This document shows positions 2,322-47,452 of a stretch of 64,000 nucleotides of DNA, piece after piece. Within the stretch, counting starts at the first letter, position 1. Each line of letters begins with the position of its first letter. Made by a program: the position numbers and the translations under genes. The notes beneath the pieces are model-generated. The model was not told the DNA's origin. It searched no databases and saw only the letters and a list, made by a program, of their open reading frames with translations. This DNA comes from Gemmatimonadales bacterium (GTDB lineage: Bacteria; Gemmatimonadota; Gemmatimonadetes; Gemmatimonadales; GWC2-71-9), in contig DATIYM010000018.1 of the NCBI GenBank assembly GCA_035517615.1, positions 45,822 through 109,821 on the forward strand. Reading direction: 5' to 3'.

Positions 2322-3421
2322 GGCCGCACGGACAATCCGAAGAACACGGACCACACTTGCTCGGTGAGTCCCACCCCGGTGCGCTCGAGACGCTCGATGC
2401 CGAGATCGAACGCGCCATGGCCCCGGGCGAACTGGCGCGCCGTTCCGAGCGAGACTGCCCACTCGGTGGGCGTGGTTCCGTTCGGACCGAATGGCAGCTG
2501 CCCGCCTCGAACGCCGAATCGCACCGGCGACGTCCGGCCGATCTCCGCGCCTGCCGACCAATTCAATGTATTGCTCGCGGTGCTGATTGCATCGCCCCAC
2601 GTGGTCATGGTCGCCGAACCCGCGAACCGGACCTTGCTGCTGGGCCGCCACATGATCCCGGCGCCGACCGTGTTGGGAAGATTGGTCGAGTTGGTGAGCG
2701 TGTCGCCGACGTATTGGTTCAGGTGCGAATCGTCGCGGCCATACACGGAGATCGAAAGCGCCCGCCCCAGGTTGAGCAGCGCGCTCACCGAGAGCCCATA
2801 GCCTTCGTAGCGCACTTGGGCAATCTGATGCACCGGCGAGAACGTCGTCGTGTCATCGAAGGTGCGGGTGGCGCTCTCTTTCGTCGATCCGGGCAGCAGG
2901 TGGACGCCGAACCCGATGGACAGCGCGCGGCCCAACCGGAACCCAGCCCCCAGATGGACGTCCGACACACCGCCGTCGCTCGTAATCTGGTCGTAGTACG
3001 GCTGCATGGTCCCCCGGAGAATCATGCTGTCGCGGGTGACCACGCTGTAGGTCCGGTCGAGGTAGTTCGAGAAGCCGCCGCCCAAGAATATGCCCGCCAC
3101 GGGGCCGGCGAGCGTGAACGATGGAAACCGCGTGGTCCTGAGCCACGTGTTGAACGTCGGGTACTCGAGATCGCGATTCGACGTGTTGAGTGAAGCCGTG
3201 GCCGTGAGCGAGCCGATAGTCGTGAGCGACGCCTCGGTGAGGAACGACAGCGAATCGAACTGCGCGAACGCACCGCCCGTGCTGCGCGCGCGCACGCTCT
3301 CGGTCCGGCCCGGCGTACCCAGGCCCGTGATGCCGAACTGCGACTCCTGCGCGCGCGCCAGTCCCGGAACGGTCCCGGCCAGGGTGACCAGCCCGATCAC
3401 GATACGGAGGCGCCCGCTCAT
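2318..3421 (-). CDS. predicted outer-membrane beta-barrel protein (hypothetical)
   Basis: 367 aa. Signal peptide MSGRLRIVIGLVTLAGTVPGLARA-QE. Alternating amphipathic G/S/T-rich strands and an aromatic-rich C-terminal strand (WSVFFGLSVRP). No family recognised. Confidence 0.55.
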   Translation of the reverse strand: MSGRLRIVIGLVTLAGTVPGLARAQESQFGITGLGTPGRTESVRARSTGGAFAQFDSLSFLTEASLTTIGSLTATASLNTSNRDLEYPTFNTWLRTTRFPSFTLAGPVAGIFLGGGFSNYLDRTYSVVTRDSMILRGTMQPYYDQITSDGGVSDVHLGAGFRLGRALSIGFGVHLLPGSTKESATRTFDDTTTFSPVHQIAQVRYEGYGLSVSALLNLGRALSISVYGRDDSHLNQYVGDTLTNSTNLPNTVGAGIMWRPSSKVRFAGSATMTTWGDAISTASNTLNWSAGAEIGRTSPVRFGVRGGQLPFGPNGTTPTEWAVSLGTARQFARGHGAFDLGIERLERTGVGLTEQVWSVFFGLSVRP

Positions 3422-4689
3422 GGTTTCCCGAATGGGAACGGGTTGCTGTACGTGAGCCGCAGCAGCGGCCGGTGAGCGGGGTCGCGCGACGAGTAGAACC
3501 GGATCTCGGCGAAATTGCCGCCCTCACCGGTCTGGCGCAGCACCATCGTGTGGGGTGCGAGGCTGTCACCAATCCAGTATCGCATGAGTCGCGTCACCTC
3601 GACCTTGACCGTATCGGTTGTCCCGATTTGCACGCCGGTCGTGTCCACGTGCGTGAGATCGATCGGCGATTTGGCGCCGAAGTCGGTTACCGCCGCGTGC
3701 GCCGCGATCCCGAACGAGTCGGCGGTGATTCCCATGGGAGCAACCGCCGGGACCAGCTCGAGCGTCGCCCGGATGAGCCGCGACGAATCCGAGATAATCT
3801 GCGGAAATACGACGCGCAGCACCGAGCGTGCGGAGGGCACGCCCCCCACCGTAAGGTCACTGTCGAGCGCCGGCGACGGCGGATCGTACACGAAACCGTC
3901 GAATGCCGGAGACCGGGTTTGCAGGCGGTGCGCCGTGGCGATCCCGAGCGAATCGACCCGCAGGTACCAGGAGATCAACGGTCCCGTGCCCACATTCTCC
4001 GACGATCCGATCGCGATGCTCGCCAGCGTGTCGGCGGCCACGCGAATGCCGAGCGCGACCGCGCCCGAGTCCGGCGTGTCGATCGGCAGGTGGGCCGAGT
4101 CTACGGCCATGAGTAGGATGATGCGCTGATTCGTCGTGTCGACCAGCACACTGTCCCCCGCGGCATTGCGCCGTCCCGGGAGCGCGATCACGCTGTCGAC
4201 ATTGACCCGCCTGATCAGGGAATCCGTGAATGGTCCCACCAGCTGCCCGAAAGTCGTGTTGGAGTCGATCGACAGCGGCAGCTTGTACAGCGAGATCGTG
4301 AGGTTATGGGCGGCGCTATCGCGGCGCAGAATCGTCAACCGCAGCCGGATGGAATCGACCCCGTTGACCTGGCTGGTCGTGGTGTCGGCCGACAGCGGCA
4401 GCCGCAGCAGCAGCTGGGTCGTGCGGAAAATGGGACGGCTGTCGCGCAACCCGGGGAGCGCGTCGGCCAGGAGCGTAAGCGAGTTGAACGGATTGACGTA
4501 CCCAACCGGGCGACCGAAGGCGGAATCGCCGTAGACCGCCATCGGCAGCACGGTGTCGACTACGGTGATCATTCCGGTCGGACAATACGCGGGACACTCG
4601 CCGGGGGCGGCAATCTTGTCGGTGCACGCCGCGAACCCGAGCGCCGCAAGCCAGGGCAGCGCCCGTCGCATGCCGTCGCGCCACTTCAT
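3418..4689 (-). CDS. predicted lipoprotein (hypothetical)
   Basis: 423 aa. N-terminus MKWRDGMRRALPWLAALGFAAC has a lipobox-like GFAAC. ATGA overlap with the downstream OMP gene. Confidence 0.55.
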   Translation of the reverse strand: MKWRDGMRRALPWLAALGFAACTDKIAAPGECPAYCPTGMITVVDTVLPMAVYGDSAFGRPVGYVNPFNSLTLLADALPGLRDSRPIFRTTQLLLRLPLSADTTTSQVNGVDSIRLRLTILRRDSAAHNLTISLYKLPLSIDSNTTFGQLVGPFTDSLIRRVNVDSVIALPGRRNAAGDSVLVDTTNQRIILLMAVDSAHLPIDTPDSGAVALGIRVAADTLASIAIGSSENVGTGPLISWYLRVDSLGIATAHRLQTRSPAFDGFVYDPPSPALDSDLTVGGVPSARSVLRVVFPQIISDSSRLIRATLELVPAVAPMGITADSFGIAAHAAVTDFGAKSPIDLTHVDTTGVQIGTTDTVKVEVTRLMRYWIGDSLAPHTMVLRQTGEGGNFAEIRFYSSRDPAHRPLLRLTYSNPFPFGKP

Positions 4690-31737: not shown

Positions 31738-32022
31738 TTACCGGCCAGACGGGACGGAAAGCAGGATGATTTCGGTGTCCGCGGGAAGCCGCATGCCAAG
31801 CTGGTCGCGCGCGCGCCGTACGAGCACCGAGCGACTTTCGGCCACGCGGATGCGGTGCTCGAGATCGGCTCGGCGTCCCTCGAGCGCCGCGCGTTGCTCC
31901 CGCACCAGGGCGAGGGCGCGCGCCGTGCGGATCGCCCGCGTCTGGCGCGCAATGACGATCCAGGCGGCGCCGAGAAAGGCGAGCAGCCAGAGCGCCGCCC
32001 AGTGGCGGCCCTTAATCGTCAC
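31738..32022 (-). CDS. ftsL: cell division protein FtsL-like (single TM plus coiled coil)
   Basis: Position between rsmH and ftsI. TM segment WAALWLLAFLGAAWIVIA is followed by a heptad-like region. The start is uncertain: GTG 32022 overlaps rsmH by 11 nt, and the track start at 32076 overlaps by 65 nt. Confidence 0.5.
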   Translation of the reverse strand: MTIKGRHWAALWLLAFLGAAWIVIARQTRAIRTARALALVREQRAALEGRRADLEHRIRVAESRSVLVRRARDQLGMRLPADTEIILLSVPSGR

Positions 32023-32932
32023 CGAATACCTCGAATGCGCGAAAGCTGGCCGAGCGGGCGCGCGGATTTGCGGCAATCTCCGCGGGCGTTGGGCGCACGC
32101 CTTTCCGGGTCAGCACACGGCCCAGCGGCTGTCCCCGGCAGGTGCATACCGGTTGCCGCGGCGGGCAGACGCACGCGCGTGCCCACTCCCGAAAATGGTT
32201 TTTCACGATTCGATCTTCGCCCGAGTGATAGCTGATCACGCCCATCCTGCCGCCGGAAACGAGCGCCGCGCGCAGCGCGGGCAGACCCAGCTCGAGCTGA
32301 TCGAGCTCCTGGTTGACGACGATGCGCACCGCCTGAAACAGCCGAGCAAAATCCGCGGGCCCCGACCGCGGGCCCAGCGTGCCGCGGATCGCGTTCACGA
32401 AATCGTCGCTGGTGGCAAACGGCCCGCGCAAGCGGCGGCGCACGATCGTGGCGGCGAGGCGATGCGCGCGAGCCGGCCGCTCATCCGCGAGCTCGCGAAA
32501 GCACTCCGCCAGCTGCTCCACGGTCCATGTGTTGAGCACGTCGGCCGCCGTCATTCCCCCCGGGCCCATGCGCATATCGAGCGGCGCGCCGGGACGGAAG
32601 GTGAACCCGCGATTCTGCGTATCGAGCTGATGCGAGGACACGCCCAGGTCGAGCAGAATCCGGTCGGGCTTGAAGGTCTGAATCGTGCCGAGCACCTTCC
32701 CCGAGGCGAACGGGCCGGTGGAGTAGCGGACCTCGGTCTCGCCCAGGAGCGCGCGCGCGGCGGCGATCGCGTCCGGGTCCCGGTCCACCGCCAGCACCGT
32801 GGCTCCTGCCTCACGCAACAGGGCGGCGTGCCCTCCCCCGCCTACCGTCGCGTCCACGGCACGCCGTCCGCCGGCGGCCCAGGCGCGAACCGCTTCGGCC
32901 AGAACCGGAACGTGGTACGTGGTCGTGCCCAG
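32012..32932 (-). CDS. rsmH: 16S rRNA (cytosine1402-N4)-methyltransferase RsmH/MraW
   Basis: DATVGGGGHA, LDLGVSSHQLD, ISYHSGEDRIVK. The track start (GTG 32857) cuts off the conserved N-terminal YHVPVLAEAV, which is in frame upstream. The only start-like codon there is CTG 32932, preceded by GAGGAAGG. The 5' end is uncertain. Confidence 0.8.
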   Translation of the reverse strand: MGTTTYHVPVLAEAVRAWAAGGRRAVDATVGGGGHAALLREAGATVLAVDRDPDAIAAARALLGETEVRYSTGPFASGKVLGTIQTFKPDRILLDLGVSSHQLDTQNRGFTFRPGAPLDMRMGPGGMTAADVLNTWTVEQLAECFRELADERPARAHRLAATIVRRRLRGPFATSDDFVNAIRGTLGPRSGPADFARLFQAVRIVVNQELDQLELGLPALRAALVSGGRMGVISYHSGEDRIVKNHFREWARACVCPPRQPVCTCRGQPLGRVLTRKGVRPTPAEIAANPRARSASFRAFEVFGDD

Positions 32933-37632: not shown

Positions 37633-38054
37633 GCGAACCGCTCCTCCAAAGCCGCGAAATCGAGAATCGGTACGAGTCCCGTCCCCTCCGCGCGATGCGC
37701 CACGCCGCTGGCCCAGGGAAGCGACTCTCCCGGCGGCACCGGGATGGCCCGTACGCGCACCACTTCCTCGGCATCGTCCACTTCGAAAGCGACGTAGCGC
37801 TCCCCCTCACCGATCTGCACCACGACTGTCGTCTGCCCCTGCGCTGCCGGGGGCGTCCGTCCGGCGCCGCCGAGCAGCGCGCCCAGGTGCACGAGCGGCA
37901 CGAGCCGACCGCGCCACGGGGTGAGACCGCGCATCGCATCGAGCGCCCGGGGCACGGACAGCACTTCCGCCCCGTCGTTGACCTCGAGCACCCGCACGAG
38001 CGGCAGGCCATACGGACGGCCTTCCGATCGCACCAGGAGATAGCCCTCGCTCAT
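37629..38054 (-). CDS. CheW-like protein (divergent)
   Basis: 141 aa. [21 protein letters not shown]...[20 protein letters not shown]...[11 protein letters not shown] has CheW topology. ATGA overlaps on both sides. Confidence 0.75.
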
Positions 38055-39145
38055 GGCGGCGCGACGCGTGGGGCTCGCACCAGCTCAACCACGCGTCCGG
38101 CAATGTGTGCCAGCGGCAGCACCGCGTCCGCGCCGCCGCCCTGCGCTGCCGCCACGGGCATGCCAGCGATCACCGACGACTCGCGATCCTGCGCGACGCC
38201 CCTGCCCCCGGCATCATGAATCGCCCGCAGCCCGGCCGCGCCGTCCCGACCCATTCCCGTCAACACGACGCCGACTGCACGGGAACCGAACAGCTCCGCG
38301 ACCGAGCGAAACAGGGGATCGGCGGCCGGGCGAACGCCCCATACCGGAGGGGATTGATCGAGGGCGAGTGCGGGACCGTCGGGCCCTTGGACCACGCGCA
38401 TATGATAATCTCCGGGGGCCACATAGGCGGTGTCCTCCACCACAGGCGCCCCGTGGTCACCCTCAACCACGCGGAGCGGACTCATCGAATCGAGCCGTTC
38501 CGCCAGACTGCGCGTGAATTTGGGCGGCATGTGTTGCGCAATCAGGACCGCCGCCCCAAGGCCGGCAGGCAGTCGGGGAATGAGCTCCGCCAGGGCCCGC
38601 GGCCCGCCCGTCGATGCGGCGATCGCGACGACGGCCCGCGCCCGGGGGCGAAGCTGCATCTCGGCCGGATGACGCACCGCGGCCGGCGGGCGGGCCATCA
38701 CCGAGACGTGCGAGAGGTCGGCGGCCAGCGCGCGCCTCACCGCGGCCACGAGCTCCGGCGCGATGTGCTCGAGCGGCGCCCGGCCGGAATCGGGGGGCTT
38801 GGCGACGATCTCGACGGCACCGAGCTCGAGCGCGCGGATCGCCGCCTGCGTGCCGGGTCCGGCGTGTGCGCTCACGACCACGATGGGGCGCGGGATCTCG
38901 GACATGATGTAGCCGATCGCGGCGAGCCCGTCGAGCTCGGGCATCTCGAGATCCATCGTGATCACGTCCGGCTCGTGCTGATGGACTTTGCGCACCGCGT
39001 CCAGCCCGTCGCGCGCGGTGCCGACGACGTCGAATTCCCCGGAGCCTTGCGGTCCCGCGAGCACGTCCGAAATCACCCGGCGCAGGAATGCGCTGTCGTC
39101 CACCACGAGCACCCGGGCCTTCCGGGCCTGGCGCTCAGATGACAC
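38051..39145 (-). CDS. cheB: protein-glutamate methylesterase/deamidase CheB (REC plus esterase)
   Basis: Trimmed to GTG 39145 ([23 protein letters not shown]). REC Asp in [14 protein letters not shown]. Esterase motifs [22 protein letters not shown]. Confidence 0.85.
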
Positions 39146-39635
39146 GAACGGGACATCCCACGGTACGCACCTCGACGCGGCCGTCCGCCACGAACATGTG
39201 CACCGAGCGGCCCGATCCGCCCCCCACGGCCTCCGCCGTGACCGGGATCGACGCATGGCGCAGCGCCTGCCGGGCCGCGACGATGTTGCGCTCGCCCATC
39301 TGGACCGATCCCGGTTGCATCAGCTGCGCAAACATGCTGGCCCCACCCGCAAGCTTGGCGACGACATGGCGCGGGTCGGCCCCGAGCTCCGCCACTCGTT
39401 CGAGCAGAAACGGCACCGCGGTCTCGGGGAATCGCGCCGGATTCGCGGCGTCGCGCGACAGGCTCCGGGATGGCAGGAGGATGTGCGCCATTGCGCCCAC
39501 TCGAGCCCCCGGATCGTGCAGCATGATTGCGACGCAGGAGCCGAGACCGAGGGTGACGAGCACCGCGTCGCCGCGATCCGCCGCCCATTCCCCCACGCGT
39601 ACCATGTGCTCACGACGCGCATCGGAGCGGTTCAT
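39135..39635 (-). CDS. cheD: chemoreceptor glutamine deamidase CheD
   Basis: Trimmed to ATG 39635 (ATGA with the cheR stop). [12 protein letters not shown]...AHILLP...KLAGGASMF. Confidence 0.85.
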
Positions 39636-40447
39636 TCGAGCCGACGGTAGATCCGCTCCCGCGGCTCCTCCAGCTTGAAGCGCTGCCGGACCTCGCCGAA
39701 CAGCGTCTCGACTTTTCCGAGCACGAGAATGCCGGCGGGAACGAGCGCGTCGGCGAACGCGCCGAACAGCCGCTCCTGGAGCGGCCGCTCGAAGTAGATC
39801 ATCACGTTGCGGCACACGATCAGGTCATACGGCGCCGCGGGCGGCGGCTCGGTCGTGAGATCGTGCCGGCGCACGCGCATCATGGTGCGCAGCCGCTCCA
39901 CGGCCTGGCGGGGCTCTACCGCGCTGAAGTACCGCGCGGCGAGCTCGCCGGGAATTTCTCCGAACGCGCTCGCCGGGAACGCCGCGGATTCCGTGCGCGC
40001 GATACTTTCGCGATCGAGATCCGTGGCATCGATGCGGGGCCGATCGAGCCAGCGTTCCTGTCCCTGGTGCCGCGCGGTCTCGGCGATCGCCACCGCGAGG
40101 CTGTAGGGCTCCTCGCCCGACGCGCAGCCCGCGGACCACACCCGAATCCGTCCTTCCCGCGCGTGCCACAGCTCGCGCAAGTAGACGGCCAGCGCCTCCC
40201 ACGTTTCGGCGTTGCGCCAGAACTTGGTGACATTGATGGTGAGCGTGTCGAGCAGCCGATCGTATTCGGTCGCGTCTTCGTCGAGCAGGCGCGCGTAGGC
40301 ACCGTAGGTATGGACGCCGCGTGCGCGCATGCGCACGGCCAGCCGCCGCCGAAAGCACTTGTGTTTATAGCTCTCGCAGCTGATGCCCCGGGCCAGCGAG
40401 ATCTTGCGGGTCAGCGCGTCGAATTCAGGATCCTGCGATGGAATCAC
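39632..40447 (-). CDS. cheR: chemotaxis protein methyltransferase CheR
   Basis: 271 aa. TINVTKFWRN, RVWSAGCASGEEPYSLA, DLIVCRNVMIYF. Confidence 0.85.
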   Translation of the reverse strand: MIPSQDPEFDALTRKISLARGISCESYKHKCFRRRLAVRMRARGVHTYGAYARLLDEDATEYDRLLDTLTINVTKFWRNAETWEALAVYLRELWHAREGRIRVWSAGCASGEEPYSLAVAIAETARHQGQERWLDRPRIDATDLDRESIARTESAAFPASAFGEIPGELAARYFSAVEPRQAVERLRTMMRVRRHDLTTEPPPAAPYDLIVCRNVMIYFERPLQERLFGAFADALVPAGILVLGKVETLFGEVRQRFKLEEPRERIYRRLE

Positions 40448-42060
40448 GACAGCGCGCTCAGCGTGTCGAGGTTCGCCTTCACGAGCTCATGCTTGGGATT
40501 CAGCTCGAGGGCTCTGCGCCAGAACATGGTGGCGAGGTCCCGGTCGTTCCGCTTGTAGGCGATGTTGCCAAGCTTGAAGTAAACATCGTCGCCCAGGTCG
40601 GGAGCGAGCTCGATGGCGCGGCTGTAGGCTTCCCACGCCTCGTCGTAGCGCGATCCCCGGTACGCGAGATCGCCTTGATTCTTCGAGAGCTGGGGCAGCG
40701 ACGGCTCGCTCTTCTTGGCGGTCTGGATCAATTCCTCGGCTTTTTCCAGATCCCCGGCGAGTTCGTGCAGCACCGCCATGTTGTTCTGCAGCACGGCATG
40801 CGAGGGGTATGCCTCCGCCCCTTCCTCCGCGATCTGATCGGCAAGCTCGAATTCGCCCGCCGAGGCGGCGGCGAGCCCGCGTGCCCAAAACCACACCGGC
40901 GGCGGCACGCCCTGGAACAGCTCGCGCGCGCGATCGAGCCGTCCGGCCGCGCTCGCGAAATCCCCCTGTTTCAGCGCGATGATTCCCCACCCGAGGAACG
41001 TGCGCGGATCGTTCTTCCCGCGCGCCGCGGCCTCGCTGTACGCCGCCTCCGCGTCGGGGAGCCGGCCGAGCTGCTCGTACGCGAGCGCGAGATTGTGCAG
41101 CACCGCGGGCTTGCCGCCGCCTTTCTCCGCGGCGAGCCGCAGCGCGTCCATCGCTTCCCGCCAGCGCGCCTGACGCAACCCCACCAGCCCGAGATAGAAA
41201 TGCGCGTGCGCATCGCCGGGCCGGAGCTCCGTCACCCGGCGGAACTCCCGCGCCGCCTCGTCGAGCATTCCCGTCTTGTAGAACGCGATGCCGAGATTGC
41301 GATGCTCCTCGACCCGCGCCTCCGTGAGCTGGGCATCATCGGACGGGGCGGTGCGTCCCGCCCGGTGCAGAAACCCCGCCGTAATGAGCCCGTACAGCGC
41401 CTTCCCGATCTCGAACTCGCCCAGCCCAGAATCTTCGATGATCTGGTTCACGTCCCGCGTGCCGTCGAGCAGCGGGAGAATTCGCTGCTGCGCGTCGGTC
41501 AGCTTTGCGTCGGAAATCGCGAGCCGGTCTTTGTCCACGATGAAAATCAGATCGAACGCCGGAATCTTCTTCTCGATCAGGCTCCATTCGTCCACGCGGC
41601 GCGCGCCTTCGAGCAGCAGCGACTCGGGATTGATGGAAACCAGGAAATCCTGCCGGTCGGCACGTACGTCGGCCTCGAAGTTGAACGTCCCCTGCGTCCA
41701 CGTGAACAGGTAATAGACGGATTCCTCGATCTGCACGCGCATATAACGCTCGAGATCGTCCTGGGTGATGACGTTCTGGCTGACGAGAATCTGCCCGAGC
41801 TTCTTGTCGCGCTGCTTGGATTGTCGATGGATGCCGGCGTCGAGCTGTTCCTGCGTGATCTTGCCGTGCTTGACGAGGATGTCGCCGAGGCGGTCGCGGC
41901 GGTTGACGATGGAGGCGTAGGAGATCCGCCCCTTCTCGAAGTAGATGTAGCCGAAGTTGGCCCGGTCGGCGATCGAGAGACACCCGGTCTTCTGCCCCAG
42001 CGAGAGCAGCTGCAGGACGTCCGGGAGCGAGGCCTCCTTGAGCGAACCCTTGATGGCCAC
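40444..42060 (-). CDS. DUF4388/PATAN-domain protein with tandem MshEN-like (T2SSE_N) motifs and C-terminal TPRs
   Basis: 538 aa. N-terminus GSLKEASLPDVLQLLSLGQKTGCLSI...GYIYFEKGRISYA is the DUF4388 signature. Then RLGDILVKHGKITQEQLDAGIHRQ-SKQRDK-KLGQILVSQNVITQDDLERYMRVQ, followed by TPRs. The GTG start directly abuts the upstream TAG. Confidence 0.7.
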   Translation of the reverse strand: MAIKGSLKEASLPDVLQLLSLGQKTGCLSIADRANFGYIYFEKGRISYASIVNRRDRLGDILVKHGKITQEQLDAGIHRQSKQRDKKLGQILVSQNVITQDDLERYMRVQIEESVYYLFTWTQGTFNFEADVRADRQDFLVSINPESLLLEGARRVDEWSLIEKKIPAFDLIFIVDKDRLAISDAKLTDAQQRILPLLDGTRDVNQIIEDSGLGEFEIGKALYGLITAGFLHRAGRTAPSDDAQLTEARVEEHRNLGIAFYKTGMLDEAAREFRRVTELRPGDAHAHFYLGLVGLRQARWREAMDALRLAAEKGGGKPAVLHNLALAYEQLGRLPDAEAAYSEAAARGKNDPRTFLGWGIIALKQGDFASAAGRLDRARELFQGVPPPVWFWARGLAAASAGEFELADQIAEEGAEAYPSHAVLQNNMAVLHELAGDLEKAEELIQTAKKSEPSLPQLSKNQGDLAYRGSRYDEAWEAYSRAIELAPDLGDDVYFKLGNIAYKRNDRDLATMFWRRALELNPKHELVKANLDTLSALS

Positions 42061-44004
42061 CTAGTGCAGCTCCTCGATCAATCGATCCGCGGGCGCCGGC
42101 CAGTCCCACACCATTTTTTCGCGGCTGCGGATGCCGCCGAGGCTCGAGACCACGAGCCCGCTCGTCCGGAGCGCGCCGCTCTTCCGATTGGGTTCGCGCT
42201 CGTGCCCCTCGAGCACCGCGCGCGCGAGCCCCACCGAGACGGACTGGTCCTGCGCGGCCGCCGCTCCGATCACGCGCTGCAGCAGTCCCTGCAGACCCCG
42301 CACCGAGTCCACCGGCCGGTCGGCTAAATACTCGAGCAGCGCCGAATCGCGATTCAACTGGTGCGTAACGAAGAGCCGCTCGAGCATCGCGCGACGGATT
42401 TCCCGGTCCGGCTCCATGATCTCGGCCACGAGTCCGCCTCCGAGGCGCGAGATCAGCCGTGCCTCCATTCCAGTGAGCTTGCTGGGATGCACCGGCGCGG
42501 TGAACAGGAGCTGACGTTCCTGATCGAGAAACAGATTGAACAGATTGAACAGCTCTTCCTGTGTCCGATCCTTCCCGGCGACGAGGTGGATGTCGTCGAG
42601 CAGCAGAGCGGTCGCGCGGCGGTAGCGTGCGCGCCACCACTCCACGCGATTCCCATTGATGGATGTGATCAATTCGTCGATGAACGTCTGCGTGGACAGG
42701 CACGCGACGACGGCGCCTGGCTGCTTGGCCAGCTCGAGTCCGACGCCGTGCAGGAGATGCGTTTTCCCCGACCCGCTCTTTCCGATGAACACGAGCGGGT
42801 TATACCGCTTGCCCGGTTGCTCGAGCACGGCGCGCGCGGCCGTGACCGCAACCTGATTCGCCGCCCCGGTGGCGTAATTCGCGAGCGGGAACGCGGCCGA
42901 TGGACCGTGCGGCGGCGCCGAACCGACGAGCACCTGCGACGCGGCCGCTTCCGCTTCGGTCATCCGCTCGGGATCGCGGAACAGGCTCTGGCCCGCGGCC
43001 TGCGGATCGAGCGCCGCCACCTCGTTCTCCAGGGTCCGGAGCCGCTCGACGTCGCGGGCAAATGCCGCGATCTCCGCATCGACCGCCGGCGGGGTGTCGC
43101 GCTCGAGCAGGACCTCGAGTCGATGGGTCCGGTAGCCCTCGCCCTCCCAGCGCAGGATGGCCTCGGCCACGCGAGCGCGCCATGCCTCCACGGCCTTCCC
43201 GACGGTGGCAGTCACGTCATCGAGGAACGATCCAAACTCGTCCGCCGAGCCCGCGACGCGAGCGGCCGCCGGCGGCGCCACCGCTCTCTCGAGTCCGAGC
43301 AGTTGCTTCGCGCCCTCCGCGTTGAGGGGCGTGTCGTTCACCGCCTGGTAGGCGACCATGCGGTTCAACGCGCCCATCAGCTCGCGCACGTTCGGGAATT
43401 CGGCCGTCGCCACCGTTTCGAGCACGCCGGGCTGGAAGTTCGCGCCCCGTTCCTCGGACTTGCGGCGCAGGATCGCTACGCGGGTCTCGTAATCGGGGAC
43501 GCCGATGTCGACCACCAGGCCCCCCGAGAACCGCGAGATGAGCCGCTCGTCGAGATCAGCGATCTCGGCCGGAGGGCGATCGCTCGTCAGCACGATCTGG
43601 TGGCCGCCGGACTGCAGCGCTTCGATCAGCCGCAGCAGCTCCGCCTGCATCTCCTTGCGGTTCGTGAGGAACTGCACATCGTCGATCAGCAGCACGTCGA
43701 CGTTCTGAAACCGGCGGCGAAACGCGTCTCCTTGCCCCGCCGCCACGGCGGCGTGGAACGCCTCGACGTATTCGTCCAGGCTCAGGTACTCGATGTTCAG
43801 ATTCGGAAACAGCTTCTTCGCGCTTTGTCCGATCGCCATCAACAGGTGTGTCTTGCCGAGGCCCGAGACGCTGTAGACGAACAGCGGGTTGTAAACCGTT
43901 CCCGGATTCTCGGCCACGGCGCGTCCCGCCGTTACCGCCAGGCGGTTGGCCGCGCCGACCACGCATGTCTCGAACGACAGCCGGGGATTGAGCGCCGTGG
44001 TCAT
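42061..44004 (-). CDS. tandem DnaA-type AAA+ ATPase (two domain-III modules; no domain I or domain IV)
   Basis: 647 aa. Module 1 (aa ~10-225): [91 protein letters not shown]. Module 2 (aa ~372-600): [86 protein letters not shown] overlap with the mglA stop. Confidence 0.75.
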
Positions 44005-44600
44005 GCGGTGGTCCCGGCGGACAGACGCTTCAGCACCAGCTCCGAGATCGCCTTGAGGGTCTCGAACACACCCCGGCCGTGGAGCGCGTCGGCGGGAAGG
44101 CTCGGGACCGCGCGGAAATTGAGCGCATCATCGAGCTCCGCCGGCTCGAGAATCAGCTCACGCGGCAGGTCCTGCTTGTTGTATTGCATGACGAGGGGGA
44201 GCGTGCGGACGTCGATCCCAAGCTCGAGCAGATTGCTCTGCAGGTTCTGCAGGCTTTCGACGTTCTCGTCGAGCTGCCGGGCCTGACTGTCCCCGACGAA
44301 CACCACGCCGTCCGCGCCCTGGAGCACGAGACGCCGCGTCGCGTTGTAATAGACCTGCCCCGGCACCGTGTACAGCTGGAACCGCGTGCTGAAGCCCGAG
44401 ATCTGACCCAGATCGATGGGGAGAAAATCGAAGAACAGCGTGCGATCGGTTTGCGTCGCGAGCGACACCATCCGTCCGCGCCGGGCCTCGGGGACGCGGC
44501 CGTAGATGTAGTGGAGATTGGTGGTCTTGCCCGATCGTCCGGGTCCGTAGTAGACGATCTTGCAGGTGATCTCGCGGGTCGTGAAGTTGACGAGGGACAC
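44001..44600 (-). CDS. mglA: Ras-like polarity/gliding GTPase MglA
   Basis: 199 aa, colinear with Myxococcus MglA as I recall it. [62 protein letters not shown]. The intrinsic Arg and catalytic Gln positions are conserved. Confidence 0.9.
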
Positions 44601-44603
44601 GTG

Positions 44604-45074
44604 CTATCTCCCGAACAGCGTGTCGAGGCTGTCGCTCAGCTGGCGCTCGAAATCGGCCGCCAGCACCTGCTTCGGGACGCCGGTCTTGGGACTCGCCGCG
44701 TGCAGCTCCGTCCGGAGTTGCTCGAAAAATAACTGCACCAGCCCGATCGATGAAACGTCGAGGTCGTACACCACCAGAACCACCACCATGCCCTGATGGG
44801 TCGGCGCGTTCGCGAGAAAGATTCCGTGACGCTCTCCCTGGTGCGTGAGCGCGGCAAACGGCGGCTCGCCGAGTTGGCGCGCGATCTCGGTGGTCGACGC
44901 CACGATCGCCGAACTGAGTGCGGCCGCCGACATGACGTCGAGCGCGCGCGCGAAGCCATGCTGCGCCAGCACCTGCCCCGCGGGCGTCATCAGCAGCACC
45001 AGCCGCGCCGCAGCCTCCCCGACGAACTGCTTGAGGGGATCGAGCGTCCACGTCTCCACCGCGCGCGTGGTCAT
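44604..45074 (-). CDS. mglB: Roadblock/LC7 protein, MglB-like (putative MglA GAP)
   Basis: Trimmed to ATG 45074 (ATGA overlap). 156 aa. VLLMTPAGQVLAQHG...VVLVVYDLDVSSIGLVQL and a C-terminal acidic tail ...DSLDTLFGR parallel the MglB architecture. It lies directly upstream of mglA. Confidence 0.75.
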   Translation of the reverse strand: MTTRAVETWTLDPLKQFVGEAAARLVLLMTPAGQVLAQHGFARALDVMSAAALSSAIVASTTEIARQLGEPPFAALTHQGERHGIFLANAPTHQGMVVVLVVYDLDVSSIGLVQLFFEQLRTELHAASPKTGVPKQVLAADFERQLSDSLDTLFGR

Positions 45075-45418
45075 CCGACCAGCTCCGCGGCGCGCAGCAG
45101 CTCGAGCCGGACCAGTCCGACATTCACCTCCGTCTCGGCCACGGCCACGATGAGGACTCCCGACGGCGCGGGCACCACGAGCAGGGCACCTTCGGTGCAC
45201 TGCAGATGCCAGAACAGCGCGGCGCCGATGCCCCCCGCGGCCATCGCGCGCGACAGCCGGTTCGCGAGGCTGCCGGCGAGCGCCGCCACGGCAGGACCCT
45301 TGATGCCCTCCATCAGCTGCTCGGCGACCACCAATCCATCCGTTGCGGAGACGAGCATCGCGCCCCGGACGCCCCGGACTCGCGTGACGAGATCGAGCGC
45401 ACGCACATAGCCGCTCAT
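45071..45418 (-). CDS. Roadblock/LC7 domain protein
   Basis: 115 aa. LDLVTRVRGVRGAMLVSATDGLVVA...ALLVVPAPSGVLIVAVAETEVNVGLVRLEL is a canonical Roadblock pattern. Confidence 0.75.
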   Translation of the reverse strand: MSGYVRALDLVTRVRGVRGAMLVSATDGLVVAEQLMEGIKGPAVAALAGSLANRLSRAMAAGGIGAALFWHLQCTEGALLVVPAPSGVLIVAVAETEVNVGLVRLELLRAAELVG

Positions 45419-46302
45419 GCCTGTCGCTCCAGCCAGCGGGCGGCAACCTGTGCCGCGCGCTGCGCGATGATCGCGAGCCGCCCCATGGGCACCGCGCGAT
45501 CGCGGATGATCAGCAGCAACGTTTGCGCGCTCGGTTGGGCCAGATGGACGTGTCCGCTCACACCTTCGGCGGCAAGACCGGTCCAGGTGCCGAGCCCTAC
45601 GAGCTTCGCGGTCCGGGCGGCTTCCTGTGACACGCCGGCCAGGTACGCCGCCACGGGAGCGGTGACGTCGTTTCCCGAGCCATCCCGCAATGCGCCGCCC
45701 AGCACCTGGCCCGAGCCGTCGAGCAGCAGCAATCCTTCCTGCGCGCCCTCGAGCCCCGCGAATACGCGCTGCTCGTCGAGTGGACCAGACGACGCGGCCG
45801 GAGCCGGCGGCGGCGTCGGCGCCGGTGCGGCAGAGCTCGGGGGCGCCGGAGCGGCGGGCACGGCAGCGCTCTCGAATCCCAGTCCCGCCGCCGCCGCCCC
45901 CGCATCGCCGCCCTGCACCATGGCCACGGCCTGCGCGATGGTGGGATCGCTCGGCGAGTGGCGTTGCGCCGCCTCGAGGTGCGCGGCGGCCTGCTCCACG
46001 TCACCGACCTTGAAATACAGAAACGCGAGTCCTTTCAGCGCGCCCACGTGCGTGGGCGCGATCCGGAGCGTCATGTCCCATTCGTCGAACGCGCGCTCGA
46101 AATCGCGCTTGTCGGCCAGGATCCGCGCGTAGAGGTCGTGCGCATCCGCGAGATGCGGGTGCCTCTCGAGCCCCGAGAGAGCCACCCGATGCGCCGCATC
46201 GAGCTGGCCCTTGTGGCGCAGCAGCTCGCCCAAGCGCAGGAACACGAGACTCGTGGGGTCCTGGGCGAGCTGCGCGGACAACGACTTCACGTCCTCAGCC
46301 AT
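45415..46302 (-). CDS. TPR - Pro/Ala linker - Roadblock/LC7 fusion protein
   Basis: ATG 46302 (MAEDVKSL) overlaps the upstream stop by 8 nt. N-terminal TPRs, then a linker AVPAAPAPPSSAAPAPTPPPAPAASS. The C-terminus GLLLLDGSGQVLGG...LLLIIRDRAVPMGRLAII is Roadblock-like. Confidence 0.65.
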   Translation of the reverse strand: MAEDVKSLSAQLAQDPTSLVFLRLGELLRHKGQLDAAHRVALSGLERHPHLADAHDLYARILADKRDFERAFDEWDMTLRIAPTHVGALKGLAFLYFKVGDVEQAAAHLEAAQRHSPSDPTIAQAVAMVQGGDAGAAAAGLGFESAAVPAAPAPPSSAAPAPTPPPAPAASSGPLDEQRVFAGLEGAQEGLLLLDGSGQVLGGALRDGSGNDVTAPVAAYLAGVSQEAARTAKLVGLGTWTGLAAEGVSGHVHLAQPSAQTLLLIIRDRAVPMGRLAIIAQRAAQVAARWLERQA

Positions 46303-47452
46303 GCTGCACCCCCGCACGGCCCAAGGTCAGCGCCGCGGCTTTCGCCTGCTGAACTTCTTCGACGCGAGCCGCCTCCGCGGGGCCATGCGGCGTGAGCCGT
46401 TCCCAATGCTCCCATTGTTCGACGGCTTCACCGAAGCGGCCGATCGCCGCGAGCGCGTGCCCCAGCAGGCGGTGCGCCGCCGCGAGCCGTGGGTCGAGCC
46501 GCACCCCCTGCCGCAGCGCCGTCACGGCCTCCGCCGGCCGTCCCGCCGCGAGCTGGACGCGGCCCAGCAGCAGGTGAATCGCCGCATTCTCGGGGTGCGC
46601 AGCGGCCGCCTGCTCGGCGGCCGCCCGCGCCTCCTGGTGGTCATGGCGTGCCAGCGCCGCCTCGGTGCCCGCCAAGAGCTCCGCGAGCTCGGCGGCCGAC
46701 CCGCCTCCCGGGCGCTCGCGCGCCGCCGCCCCGGGATCGATGAGCAGAATCACGCCGGCGCTCTCGAGTCCGAACAGCGTCTTCGCGACGTCGAAATCCG
46801 AGCGGCCGAGCTGCCGCGCGATGGTGCGCACGTCACGCGTCGAGTCGATCATCGCCAGGACTTCCCATTCCGCCGGAAGCAGATCGAGCGCCGGGCTGGT
46901 GCCCGACGACAGCGCCGCCAGATGCGGCACGACGCCGACGTGCGGAACGCGCTTCTCGATCCGCGACCATTCGTCGATGCGGCGCGCGCCCTCCATGAGG
47001 AGCGCCTCGGTTCGAATCCGCACCACGGCGCGCATCGCCACGTCCGGCCCCGGCTCTTCGCTGAACGAGAAGAACCCCTCGTTCCAGCTCATGACTTCGA
47101 ACACGACTTCCTCGATCTGAAAGCGCACCTGGCGCTCCACGTCGCGCGGCGTGACCGCGCCCATCTCCACGAGGATTTCGCCCAGTCGGCGCGCGTCGCC
47201 TTTCGTCTGCAGCTCGCGCGCGCGCTCGAGGTCCGATTCGGTGATCTTGCCGGTGCGGACGAGCAGTGTGCCGATCTGGTGCGGGTTGCTCCGCATCTCG
47301 GCGAACACCACCGCGCCTTCGTCGAAGTAGATCTTGCCGTCGTTCAACCGCAGATCCGACGTGACGCGCAGCACGCCCGTCTTCCGGCTCAGGTCGAGCA
47401 GCTGGAAGACGTCGTGAATCCCGAGCTCGCGTAGCGGTCCTTCGATCGGCAT
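46295..47452 (-). CDS. DUF4388/PATAN-domain protein with tandem MshEN-like motifs and C-terminal TPRs (paralog of 40444..42060)
   Basis: 385 aa. GPLRELGIHDVFQLLDLSRKTGVLRV...GKIYFDEGAVVFA, then QIGTLLVRTGKITESDLERARELQ-TKGDAR-RLGEILVEMGAVTPRDVERQVRFQ, then Ala-rich TPRs. Confidence 0.7.
   Translation of the reverse strand: MPIEGPLRELGIHDVFQLLDLSRKTGVLRVTSDLRLNDGKIYFDEGAVVFAEMRSNPHQIGTLLVRTGKITESDLERARELQTKGDARRLGEILVEMGAVTPRDVERQVRFQIEEVVFEVMSWNEGFFSFSEEPGPDVAMRAVVRIRTEALLMEGARRIDEWSRIEKRVPHVGVVPHLAALSSGTSPALDLLPAEWEVLAMIDSTRDVRTIARQLGRSDFDVAKTLFGLESAGVILLIDPGAAARERPGGGSAAELAELLAGTEAALARHDHQEARAAAEQAAAAHPENAAIHLLLGRVQLAAGRPAEAVTALRQGVRLDPRLAAAHRLLGHALAAIGRFGEAVEQWEHWERLTPHGPAEAARVEEVQQAKAAALTLGRAGVQHG

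Follow-up and report, generated by a model that had tools for sequence, protein, structure and literature searches.

This locus raises the question of whether a PATAN protein encoded among chemosensory and MglA-like genes could be a receptor for cyclic di-GMP (c-di-GMP). The window, which is the whole 64,000-nucleotide stretch of Gemmatimonadales DNA analyzed here, carries on its minus strand (40444-42060) a gene with a GTG start for a 538-amino-acid protein that we call PATAN-TPR protein 1. Positions 41731-41892 map exactly to residues 57-110 of this protein, which read RLGDILVKHGKITQEQLDAGIHRQ - SKQRDK - KLGQILVSQNVITQDDLERYMRVQ, two 24-residue motifs of the MshEN type (residues 57-80 and 87-110); the plus-strand translation of the same interval is meaningless. 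This segment corresponds to an insertion already known in the PATAN/DUF4388 domain, the α-clip. Sequence comparison and structure prediction support the α-clip as a true homolog of the MshEN_N module of MshE-, PilB-, and PilF-type ATPases. From motif, homology, fold prediction, conservation, and gene order, we infer that it rather probably binds one extended c-di-GMP in the manner of MshEN_N.

The sequence-only reading had transcribed residues 57-110 exactly as they appear in the computed translation. It compared them with the strict consensus RLGxx(L/V/I)(L/V/I)xxG(L/V/I)(L/V/I)xxxxLxxxLxxQ, which was also used here. The departures that it listed, namely, K at position 11 of copy 1, K, N, and M at positions 1, 10, and 21 of copy 2, and a spacer of 6 residues, are all present; it omitted the I at position 21 of copy 1. 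Copy 1 (residues 57-80; 41821-41892, minus strand) forms helices α1 and α2 of the predicted structure and copy 2 (residues 87-110; 41731-41802, minus strand) forms α3 and α4, both being delimited by motif match and conservation. The spacer between them spans residues 81-86 (41803-41820, minus strand), and validated binders have spacers of 5 residues (MshE and PilF GSPII-B) or 7 residues (PilF GSPII-C). In a six-frame translation of the window, comprising 128,000 residues, a tight form of the motif was observed three times against 0.003 expected from shuffles. All three occurrences fall in the two PATAN proteins of the window, PATAN-TPR protein 1 and its paralog PATAN-TPR2.

Profile and sequence searches gave the same picture. 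NF053729, a curated 53-position NCBIfam model named "c-di-GMP_motif, MshE-related," matched residues 57-110 over model positions 1-53 of 53, with a score of 54.3 bits against a cutoff of 38 (E, 8.7e-15). The controls scored 86.5 bits (VcMshE), 54.3 bits (PilF GSPII-C), and 32.0 bits (Bdellovibrio bacteriovorus Bd2402); PATAN-TPR protein 1 thus has the score of PilF GSPII-C, a measured binder (PMC11731258). When the N-terminal 244 amino acids were searched against the PDB with phmmer, residues 54-110 matched only MshEN-type chains, at E values of 3e-6 to 2e-3 (3e-6 for PilF, 9e-4 for PilB, and 1e-3 for MshE). A profile of the insertion built from 55 family members also matched only MshEN-type chains ahead of its next match at 0.023, with E values of 2.7e-33 for PilF, 2.5e-16 for PilB, 2.9e-14 for VcMshE (5HTL), 1.8e-11 for Myxococcus xanthus PilB, and 2e-9 for PilF GSPII-B, values that are inflated by selection because the underlying alignment was assembled with a regular expression for the motif. 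The single-sequence phmmer and NCBIfam results are free of that bias.

The Pfam model for T2SSE_N/MshEN, PF05157, gave no match at E values up to 10, whether the whole protein, the N-terminal 244 amino acids, or the isolated insertion was used as the query. The sequence-only reading had named failure to recover T2SSE_N as evidence against its proposal. That failure did occur, but the test is unsound, as the positive controls fail likewise: isolated MshEN_N fragments of VcMshE, Geobacter metallireducens PilB, and Thermus thermophilus PilF also miss PF05157 and instead match positions 49-75 of the PATAN model PF14332. The miss is uninformative for this reason. In the supplementary alignment of Wang et al. 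(2016), the PF05157 model of that year starts in the middle of motif 2. A complete MshEN/T2SSE_N domain, which in PF05157 includes the α/β subdomain MshEN_C/T2SSE_N1, was not found in PATAN-TPR protein 1. The protein belongs to the class listed as "MshEN_N only" in Supplementary Table 4 of Wang et al. (2016), since it has no PF05157 match and its helix α4 returns straight into the PATAN core. As a side observation, the single-hairpin PF14332 model is an annotation trap for censuses of c-di-GMP receptors, as tandem α-clips are split by it and MshE, PilB, and PilF fragments land in it.

The layout of the protein, all on the minus strand, agrees with an insertion. In PATAN-TPR protein 1, a PATAN/DUF4388 domain interrupted by the α-clip is followed by a winged-helix-like region and then by a TPR array. 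PF14332 matches it with 135.8 bits (gathering score, 25; E, 1e-39), and the match is split into two stretches because the model contains one hairpin only, at profile positions ~50-75. The N-terminus MAIKGS is common to its homologs. The N-terminal half of the PATAN core (residues 1-53; 41902-42060) covers PF14332 positions 1 to ~49 and has a predicted local distance difference test score (pLDDT) of ~90 in an AlphaFold2 model. It is predicted as a strand, a helix, and three strands (residues 3-6, 12-21, 26-32, 35-42, and 45-51, respectively). The C-terminal half of the core (residues 111-165; 41566-41730), defined by the model and by the second PF14332 stretch, takes in the end of helix α4 at residue 119, a strand at 125-130, and further helices. 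A winged-helix-like region (residues 186-237; 41350-41505) was identified from the model, from Foldseek, where it resembles the winged helix 2yu3, and from a weak Pfam match to the PKMT winged helix; its elements are helices at 189-197, 204-211, and 215-227 and strands at 199-203 and 231-236. The TPR array (residues 250-533; 40462-41313) matched Pfam TPR_2, TPR_1, and TPR_16 at 1e-22 to 1e-28 and TPR proteins in the PDB.

The AlphaFold2 model of residues 1-244, built from 51 sequences, has an overall pLDDT of 88.4 and a predicted TM score of 0.79. In it, the β-rich strands of the PATAN core are followed by four helices, at residues 58-64, 70-82, 88-94, and 100-119, which are predicted to pack as a four-helix bundle of two helical hairpins, as in MshEN_N. 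The arrangement is that of a PATAN α-clip, with core strands within residues 3-51, the four helices, and then the strand at 125-130. Foldseek superimposed the four helices on c-di-GMP-bound MshE (5HTL_B) at 1.4 Å over 56 columns, with 32% identity and a probability of 1.0, and on c-di-GMP-bound PilF GSPII-B (8PDK_A) at 1.1 Å over 54 columns. The weakness of the Foldseek E values reflects only the small size of the aligned piece compared with the model.

Both motif copies were retained in 118 of 120 close homologs; these 118 are 66 to 89% identical to PATAN-TPR protein 1 and are annotated as Gemmatimonadales. R57, G59, Q80, G89, L103, and Q110 were invariant among them, motif positions 9-11, 14-15, 18-19, and 22 varied, and the spacer was 6 residues in 114 (5-7 in more distant cluster representatives). 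At a wider scale, 14,767 cluster representatives of a 50%-identity library matched the N-terminus of PATAN-TPR protein 1 at E values up to 1e-3. An unbiased MAFFT alignment of a diverse set of 116 representatives from this library showed in copy 1 the motif residues R in 89 (and K in another 7), G3 in 112, G10 in 96, L17 in 98, and Q24 in 92. The corresponding counts in copy 2 were 64 (and 15 with K), 97, 90, 95, and 108. Of 135 representatives, 116 carried the α-clip insertion and 5 lacked it. On these alignments, the MshEN-type signature of the α-clip is a family-wide property and no special fusion. The MshEN homology proposed by the sequence-only reading is thus borne out by NF053729, profile, fold, and contact residues, but the reading had not recognized that the segment is an α-clip shared across the PATAN family. 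Three very large homologs of ~1450-1490 amino acids (P0136, P0139, and P0144), in which the query matched in 5-6 separate stretches, are apparently concatenated PATAN/α-clip units; P0139 and P0144 have 6-7 copies of the MshEN-type motif, and P0136 has two by the regular expression used.

The contacts described by Wang et al. (2016) for MshEN allow the residues to be compared one by one. There, the first Arg stacks on one guanine, the other guanine sits on a hydrophobic triangle that Leu2 makes with L17 and L21 from the opposite motif, and the backbone NH groups of Gly3 and the following residue recognize the Hoogsteen edge. The helices turn at Gly10, and ribose and phosphate are bound by Gln24. 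The equivalents are R57, L58, G59-D60, G66, L73, I77, and Q80 in copy 1 and K87, L88, G89-Q90, N96, L103, M107, and Q110 in copy 2. By the definition of Wang et al. (2016), the contacts kept are R57, L58, G59, D60, G66, L73, Q80, L88, G89, L103, and Q110. Key residues were scored as (R/K/L)-L-G at positions 1-3, Gly at 10, L17, L21, and Q24 in both motifs. Eleven of the 14 key positions are those of VcMshE; I77 and M107 are conservative (L to I and L to M), and K87 is an R-to-K change. The ligand contacts are held constant in the homologs, in contrast to adjacent surface positions. Retention of these residues suggests selection on the ligand site and not on the bundle alone, since XpsE keeps the fold, has lost the contact residues, and is a non-binder.

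Four of the deviations, K11, K1, the length of the spacer, and a hydrophobic residue other than Leu where the motif has Leu, have an experimental precedent or lie inside an extended consensus. In a 2024 study of PilF (PMC11731258), a Lys or Leu as the first motif residue stacks on the guanine and confers a higher affinity than Arg, and the authors extended the consensus to (R/K/L)LG.... The GSPII-B domain, with a dissociation constant of 6 nM, provides the precedent for K at position 1, in its motif I. GSPII-C binds with MshEN-like affinity, and the degenerate GSPII-A is a non-binder (PMC11731258). In our phmmer alignment, position 11 is K in GSPII-C, position 1 of the second GSPII-C motif is P, and 7 residues separate the two motifs.

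If the α-clip works as MshEN_N does, one extended c-di-GMP would lie across both hairpins of an insert that sits between the fifth strand and the rest of the PATAN fold. Each guanine would be held between R57 or K87 and a triangle formed by L58 with L103 and M107 or by L88 with L73 and I77. The backbone NH groups of G59-D60 and G89-Q90 would read the guanine Hoogsteen edge, and Q80 and Q110 would hold ribose and phosphate. One half-site, made by the first RLG and the last LxxxMxxQ, would come to lie at the junction of insert and core, comparable to the way in which the MshEN_C subdomain abuts the site in MshE. Because the insert is tied to the PATAN core through both the beginning of α1 and the end of α4, ligand binding could be passed to the PATAN surface and on to the winged-helix and TPR scaffold. 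The output would be an altered engagement of the MglA/MglB-like switch, the DnaA-like ATPase, or the Che proteins. Both the allosteric route and the identity of the partner are speculative.

Bd2402 probably offers an experimental precedent. Wang et al. (2016) cite tight c-di-GMP binding by this protein and list it as "REC - MshEN_N - UNK." The Bd2402 gene was recovered from a B. bacteriovorus genome, its product being 100% identical to the published 77-amino-acid fragment. Pfam recognizes a REC domain, PF14332 at residues 164-287 (E, 1e-4; 22.7 bits against a gathering score of 25), and weak TPRs. A BLASTP alignment is colinear between residues 6-264 of PATAN-TPR protein 1 and residues 159-429 of Bd2402 (E, 1e-3), and hhalign of the two family alignments gave an E value of 4.7e-5 over 261 columns with a probability of 68%. 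The "UNK" region thus probably comprises, to judge from these alignments, a PATAN core, a winged helix, and a TPR-like tail, so that Bd2402 would correspond to the window protein with a receiver domain added.

Several points weigh against c-di-GMP binding by the α-clip. The link of Bd2402 to PATAN is only moderate, with 22.7 bits against 25 and the probability of 68%, and its binding site was assigned by motif. Neither motif copy of PATAN-TPR protein 1 is an exact match to even the relaxed PHI-BLAST pattern of Wang et al., because of K67 at position 11 of copy 1 and N96 at position 10 of copy 2. N96 stands where VcMshE has its turn Gly, a rare substitution present in 5 of the 116 representatives, and we could document no precedent for it at the turn Gly of copy 2. 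The insertion profile carries the selection noted above. No GGDEF, EAL, or HD-GYP gene was found among the ~38 window open reading frames (ORFs) scanned, ~15 smaller ORFs being outside the scan. We know of no PATAN α-clip for which measured c-di-GMP binding has been mapped to its site.

The lack of GGDEF, EAL, and HD-GYP genes among the scanned ORFs also speaks for the main rival reading, which we consider unlikely and in which the α-clip is a ligand-independent protein-protein module. Its resemblance to the PilB/GspE N-terminus would let the PATAN protein use jointly, or compete for, a pilus or secretion-motor partner or an MglA/MglB partner, with the motif residues kept for the interface and the helix bundle and not for c-di-GMP. 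Such a role was proposed by Han et al. for PatA-type regulators of cyanobacteria, whose binding partners include PilB1 and PilC. A c-di-GMP census cited in the ComFB paper counts only three MshEN proteins in Synechocystis despite six PATAN regulators, which implies that many α-clips are not regarded as binders. The degenerate first half-site of PATAN-TPR2 fits an interaction module as well. However, R57, G59, Q80, G89, and Q110 correspond to ligand contacts and not to core residues in MshE, and they are near-invariant here, whereas in the non-binders XpsE and PilF GSPII-A the fold has persisted without the contact residues. On NF053729, a c-di-GMP-specific model, the segment scores the same as a proven binder, and an interaction role and c-di-GMP binding are in any case compatible with each other.

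It is improbable that another cyclic dinucleotide, such as 3',3'-cyclic GMP-AMP (3',3'-cGAMP), is the physiological ligand. A section heading in Wang et al. (2016) does state that MshEN can bind cGAMP also, and recognition by MshEN is mostly by hydrophobic stacking and backbone contacts. However, the same paper describes MshEN as c-di-GMP specific among the nucleotides tested, all of the structures that we retrieved are c-di-GMP complexes, and the α-clip sequence has no sign of altered specificity. That the resemblance is a chance low-complexity helical repeat unrelated to MshEN has a negligible likelihood. The failure to recover PF05157 would favor it, but genuine MshEN_N fragments fail that control as well. 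It is ruled out by the motif counts (3 against 0.003 expected), the NF053729 E value of 8.7e-15, PDB matches exclusively to MshEN-type domains, the retention of both copies in 118 of 120 close homologs, and the structural superposition at 1.1-1.4 Å. Binding of c-di-GMP is our preferred reading of the α-clip.

The biological setting of PATAN-TPR protein 1 may be considered from its genomic context. The gene lies in an operon-like minus-strand run with junctions of 0-4 nucleotides (nt), in the order CheY, CheA, CheC/X, an 896-amino-acid TPR protein, PATAN-TPR2, a TPR-Roadblock protein, Roadblock/MglB-like genes, an MglA-like GTPase, a 647-amino-acid double DnaA-type AAA+ protein, PATAN-TPR protein 1, CheR, CheD, CheB, two CheW genes, and TPR proteins. 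The neighboring cheR (39632-40447), the start of which overlaps the PATAN-TPR protein 1 stop by 4 nt, cheD (39135-39815), and cheB (38051-39256) were identified with Pfam. The MglA-like small GTPase (44001-44600) was assigned from weak Arf and small_GTP matches and from synteny, and the Roadblock/MglB-like genes upstream of it (44604-46317) from NF052242 (MglB) and Pfam Robl_LC7. All of these are on the minus strand. Among them, a 280-amino-acid ORF (44604-45446, minus strand) is probably overextended: its Roadblock/MglB match covers residues 138-279 only, and a 115-amino-acid Roadblock-like ORF in another frame (45071-45418, minus strand) overlaps its 5' part. A relative with 72% identity (L001) has three Roadblock genes of 115-171 amino acids at that position. 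No recognizable methyl-accepting chemotaxis protein was found among the scanned ORFs of the che-mglA cluster (window 33193-54555) and its flanks. The cluster abuts a dcw cell-wall/division cluster with mraW (32012-32857), ftsI, murE, murF, mraY, ftsW, and murG.

The double DnaA-type protein (42061-44004, minus strand) matches PF00308 twice, as well as the TIGR00362 and Hda models. TIGR00362 covers DnaA positions 102-335 with 480 bits, the second half of the protein resembles Hda, and neither the N-terminal nor the DNA-binding domain of DnaA is present. As a putative fixed partner of the MglA module, it is wedged between the mglA-like gene and PATAN-TPR protein 1, with junctions of 0-4 nt. A DnaA-type gene is found in the equivalent position in L001 (643 amino acids; PF00308 twice; 72% identity) and in a distant relative, L037 (579 amino acids; 38% identity).

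PATAN-TPR2 (46295-47452, minus strand; 385 amino acids) scores 44.5 bits on NF053729 against the cutoff of 38. Its tandem motif lies in residues 59-112 (47117-47278, minus strand) and reads QIGTLLVRTGKITESDLERARELQ-TKGDAR-RLGEILVEMGAVTPRDVERQVRFQ, with a degenerate copy 1 in which positions 1 and 21 are Q and R, respectively. The R at position 21 is a change of the XpsE L29R type, and on this sequence basis PATAN-TPR2 may be a poorer binder or a non-binder. The two PATAN-TPR paralogs may accordingly differ in their responsiveness to c-di-GMP.

The gene order is conserved over considerable divergence. The order seen in the window is repeated in L001, on a 3.3-Mb contig. The distant L037 (38% identity, with a visibly different amino acid composition) keeps MglA, the DnaA-like ATPase, PATAN-TPR, CheR, CheD, and CheB. 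A relative with 42% identity (L040) keeps PATAN-TPR, CheR, and CheD, and in one with 40% identity the PATAN-TPR gene is preceded by three Roadblock genes. The order mglA, DnaA-like ATPase, PATAN-TPR, cheR, cheD, cheB is thus conserved down to 38% identity and constitutes a defined, testable conserved unit. L037 also encodes a 362-amino-acid PilT-like T2SSE ATPase (3235-4323, plus strand) three genes upstream of its MglA-CheRDB unit, and this neighbor hints at type IV pilus motility as the output of the module. The link of the α-clip to MglA and Che is drawn from this conserved gene order and is speculative.

If the α-clip binds c-di-GMP, the second messenger would stand upstream of an MglA-type switch and a chemosensory pathway, a link that has been sought in research on Myxococcus motility. 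Genomes with many turnover enzymes and few known receptors would also gain additional receptors. Gemmatimonas aurantiaca, a relative belonging to the same phylum, is such a case, with 22 GGDEF/EAL/HD-GYP proteins, no PilZ, and only two MshEN proteins in Supplementary Table 5 of Wang et al. (2016). A broader proposal, which is tentative and on the whole doubtful, is that PATAN proteins with the full MshEN signature form a large class of c-di-GMP receptors under the DUF4388 label, wired to MglA/Roadblock and Che proteins in several lineages. If true, the small-GTPase polarity module, which determines the direction in which cells move on surfaces, would be a direct target of c-di-GMP by way of the unit of mglA, DnaA-like ATPase, PATAN-TPR, and cheRDB. 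For annotation, the Pfam name "DUF4388 domain-containing protein" hides a probable ligand site that NF053729 detects.

Parts of this picture have been described before. PatA-type regulators were reportedly defined in a 2006 paper by Makarova and coworkers, to which Han et al. refer. That the α-clip is akin to the N-terminal regions of ATPases of secretion systems and pili had already been pointed out (Han et al.). Wang et al. (2016) counted 22 MshEN genes in M. xanthus and listed MXAN_3211, MXAN_4739, MXAN_4438, MXAN_5196, and MXAN_6627 as predicted binders in Supplementary Table 3. In those alignments, the motifs start at an internal residue and run into PATAN-like sequence, for example, ...TETLYRLFT.KSGTYEF, and a study of the MglA/SgmX network describes MXAN_3211 as having a PATAN domain. 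A literature search for MshEN together with PATAN or DUF4388 returned no explicit statement that the α-clip of a PATAN protein is a c-di-GMP binder. The idea is nevertheless not new, as both the link between α-clip and ATPases and the myxobacterial prediction are published, and the present case is a sound rediscovery applied to a new protein.

Among the known systems, Bd2402 is colinear with PATAN-TPR protein 1 from the PATAN start through the α-clip and the winged helix into a TPR-like tail. It differs in its N-terminal receiver domain, in being only ~20% identical, in a poorer motif (32 bits, under the NF053729 cutoff), and in a PF14332 match slightly under the Pfam threshold. MXAN_4739 and MXAN_3211 share a tandem motif from approximately residue 50, which in MXAN_4739 is followed by the PATAN-like sequence ...LYRLFT.KSGTYEF. 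They come from a different phylum, and their binding is a prediction, with no experimental test in the searchable literature. PatA, PixG, and PixE, which combine PATAN and an α-clip, have the two hairpins at the same insertion site, and PATAN proteins share an association with Roadblock/MglB-type genes and Che systems. In PATAN-TPR protein 1, however, the C-terminal partner is a winged helix and a TPR array where those proteins have a REC domain, the α-clip keeps a largely intact c-di-GMP signature, and the host is a Gemmatimonadales bacterium and not a cyanobacterium or myxobacterium. MshE (5HTL) and PilF GSPII-B and GSPII-C provide the closest likeness for the α-clip itself. Unlike them, PATAN-TPR protein 1 lacks the MshEN_C/T2SSE_N1 subdomain and the ATPase, and its bundle lies inside a PATAN β-domain instead of at the protein N-terminus. 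Relative to MshE, its spacer is 6 residues instead of 5, and K87, N96, I77, M107, and K67 are off the strict consensus. What PATAN-TPR protein 1 has in common with MshE and PilF are the two 24-residue motifs, the short spacer, the predicted four-helix bundle, and most of the ligand contacts.

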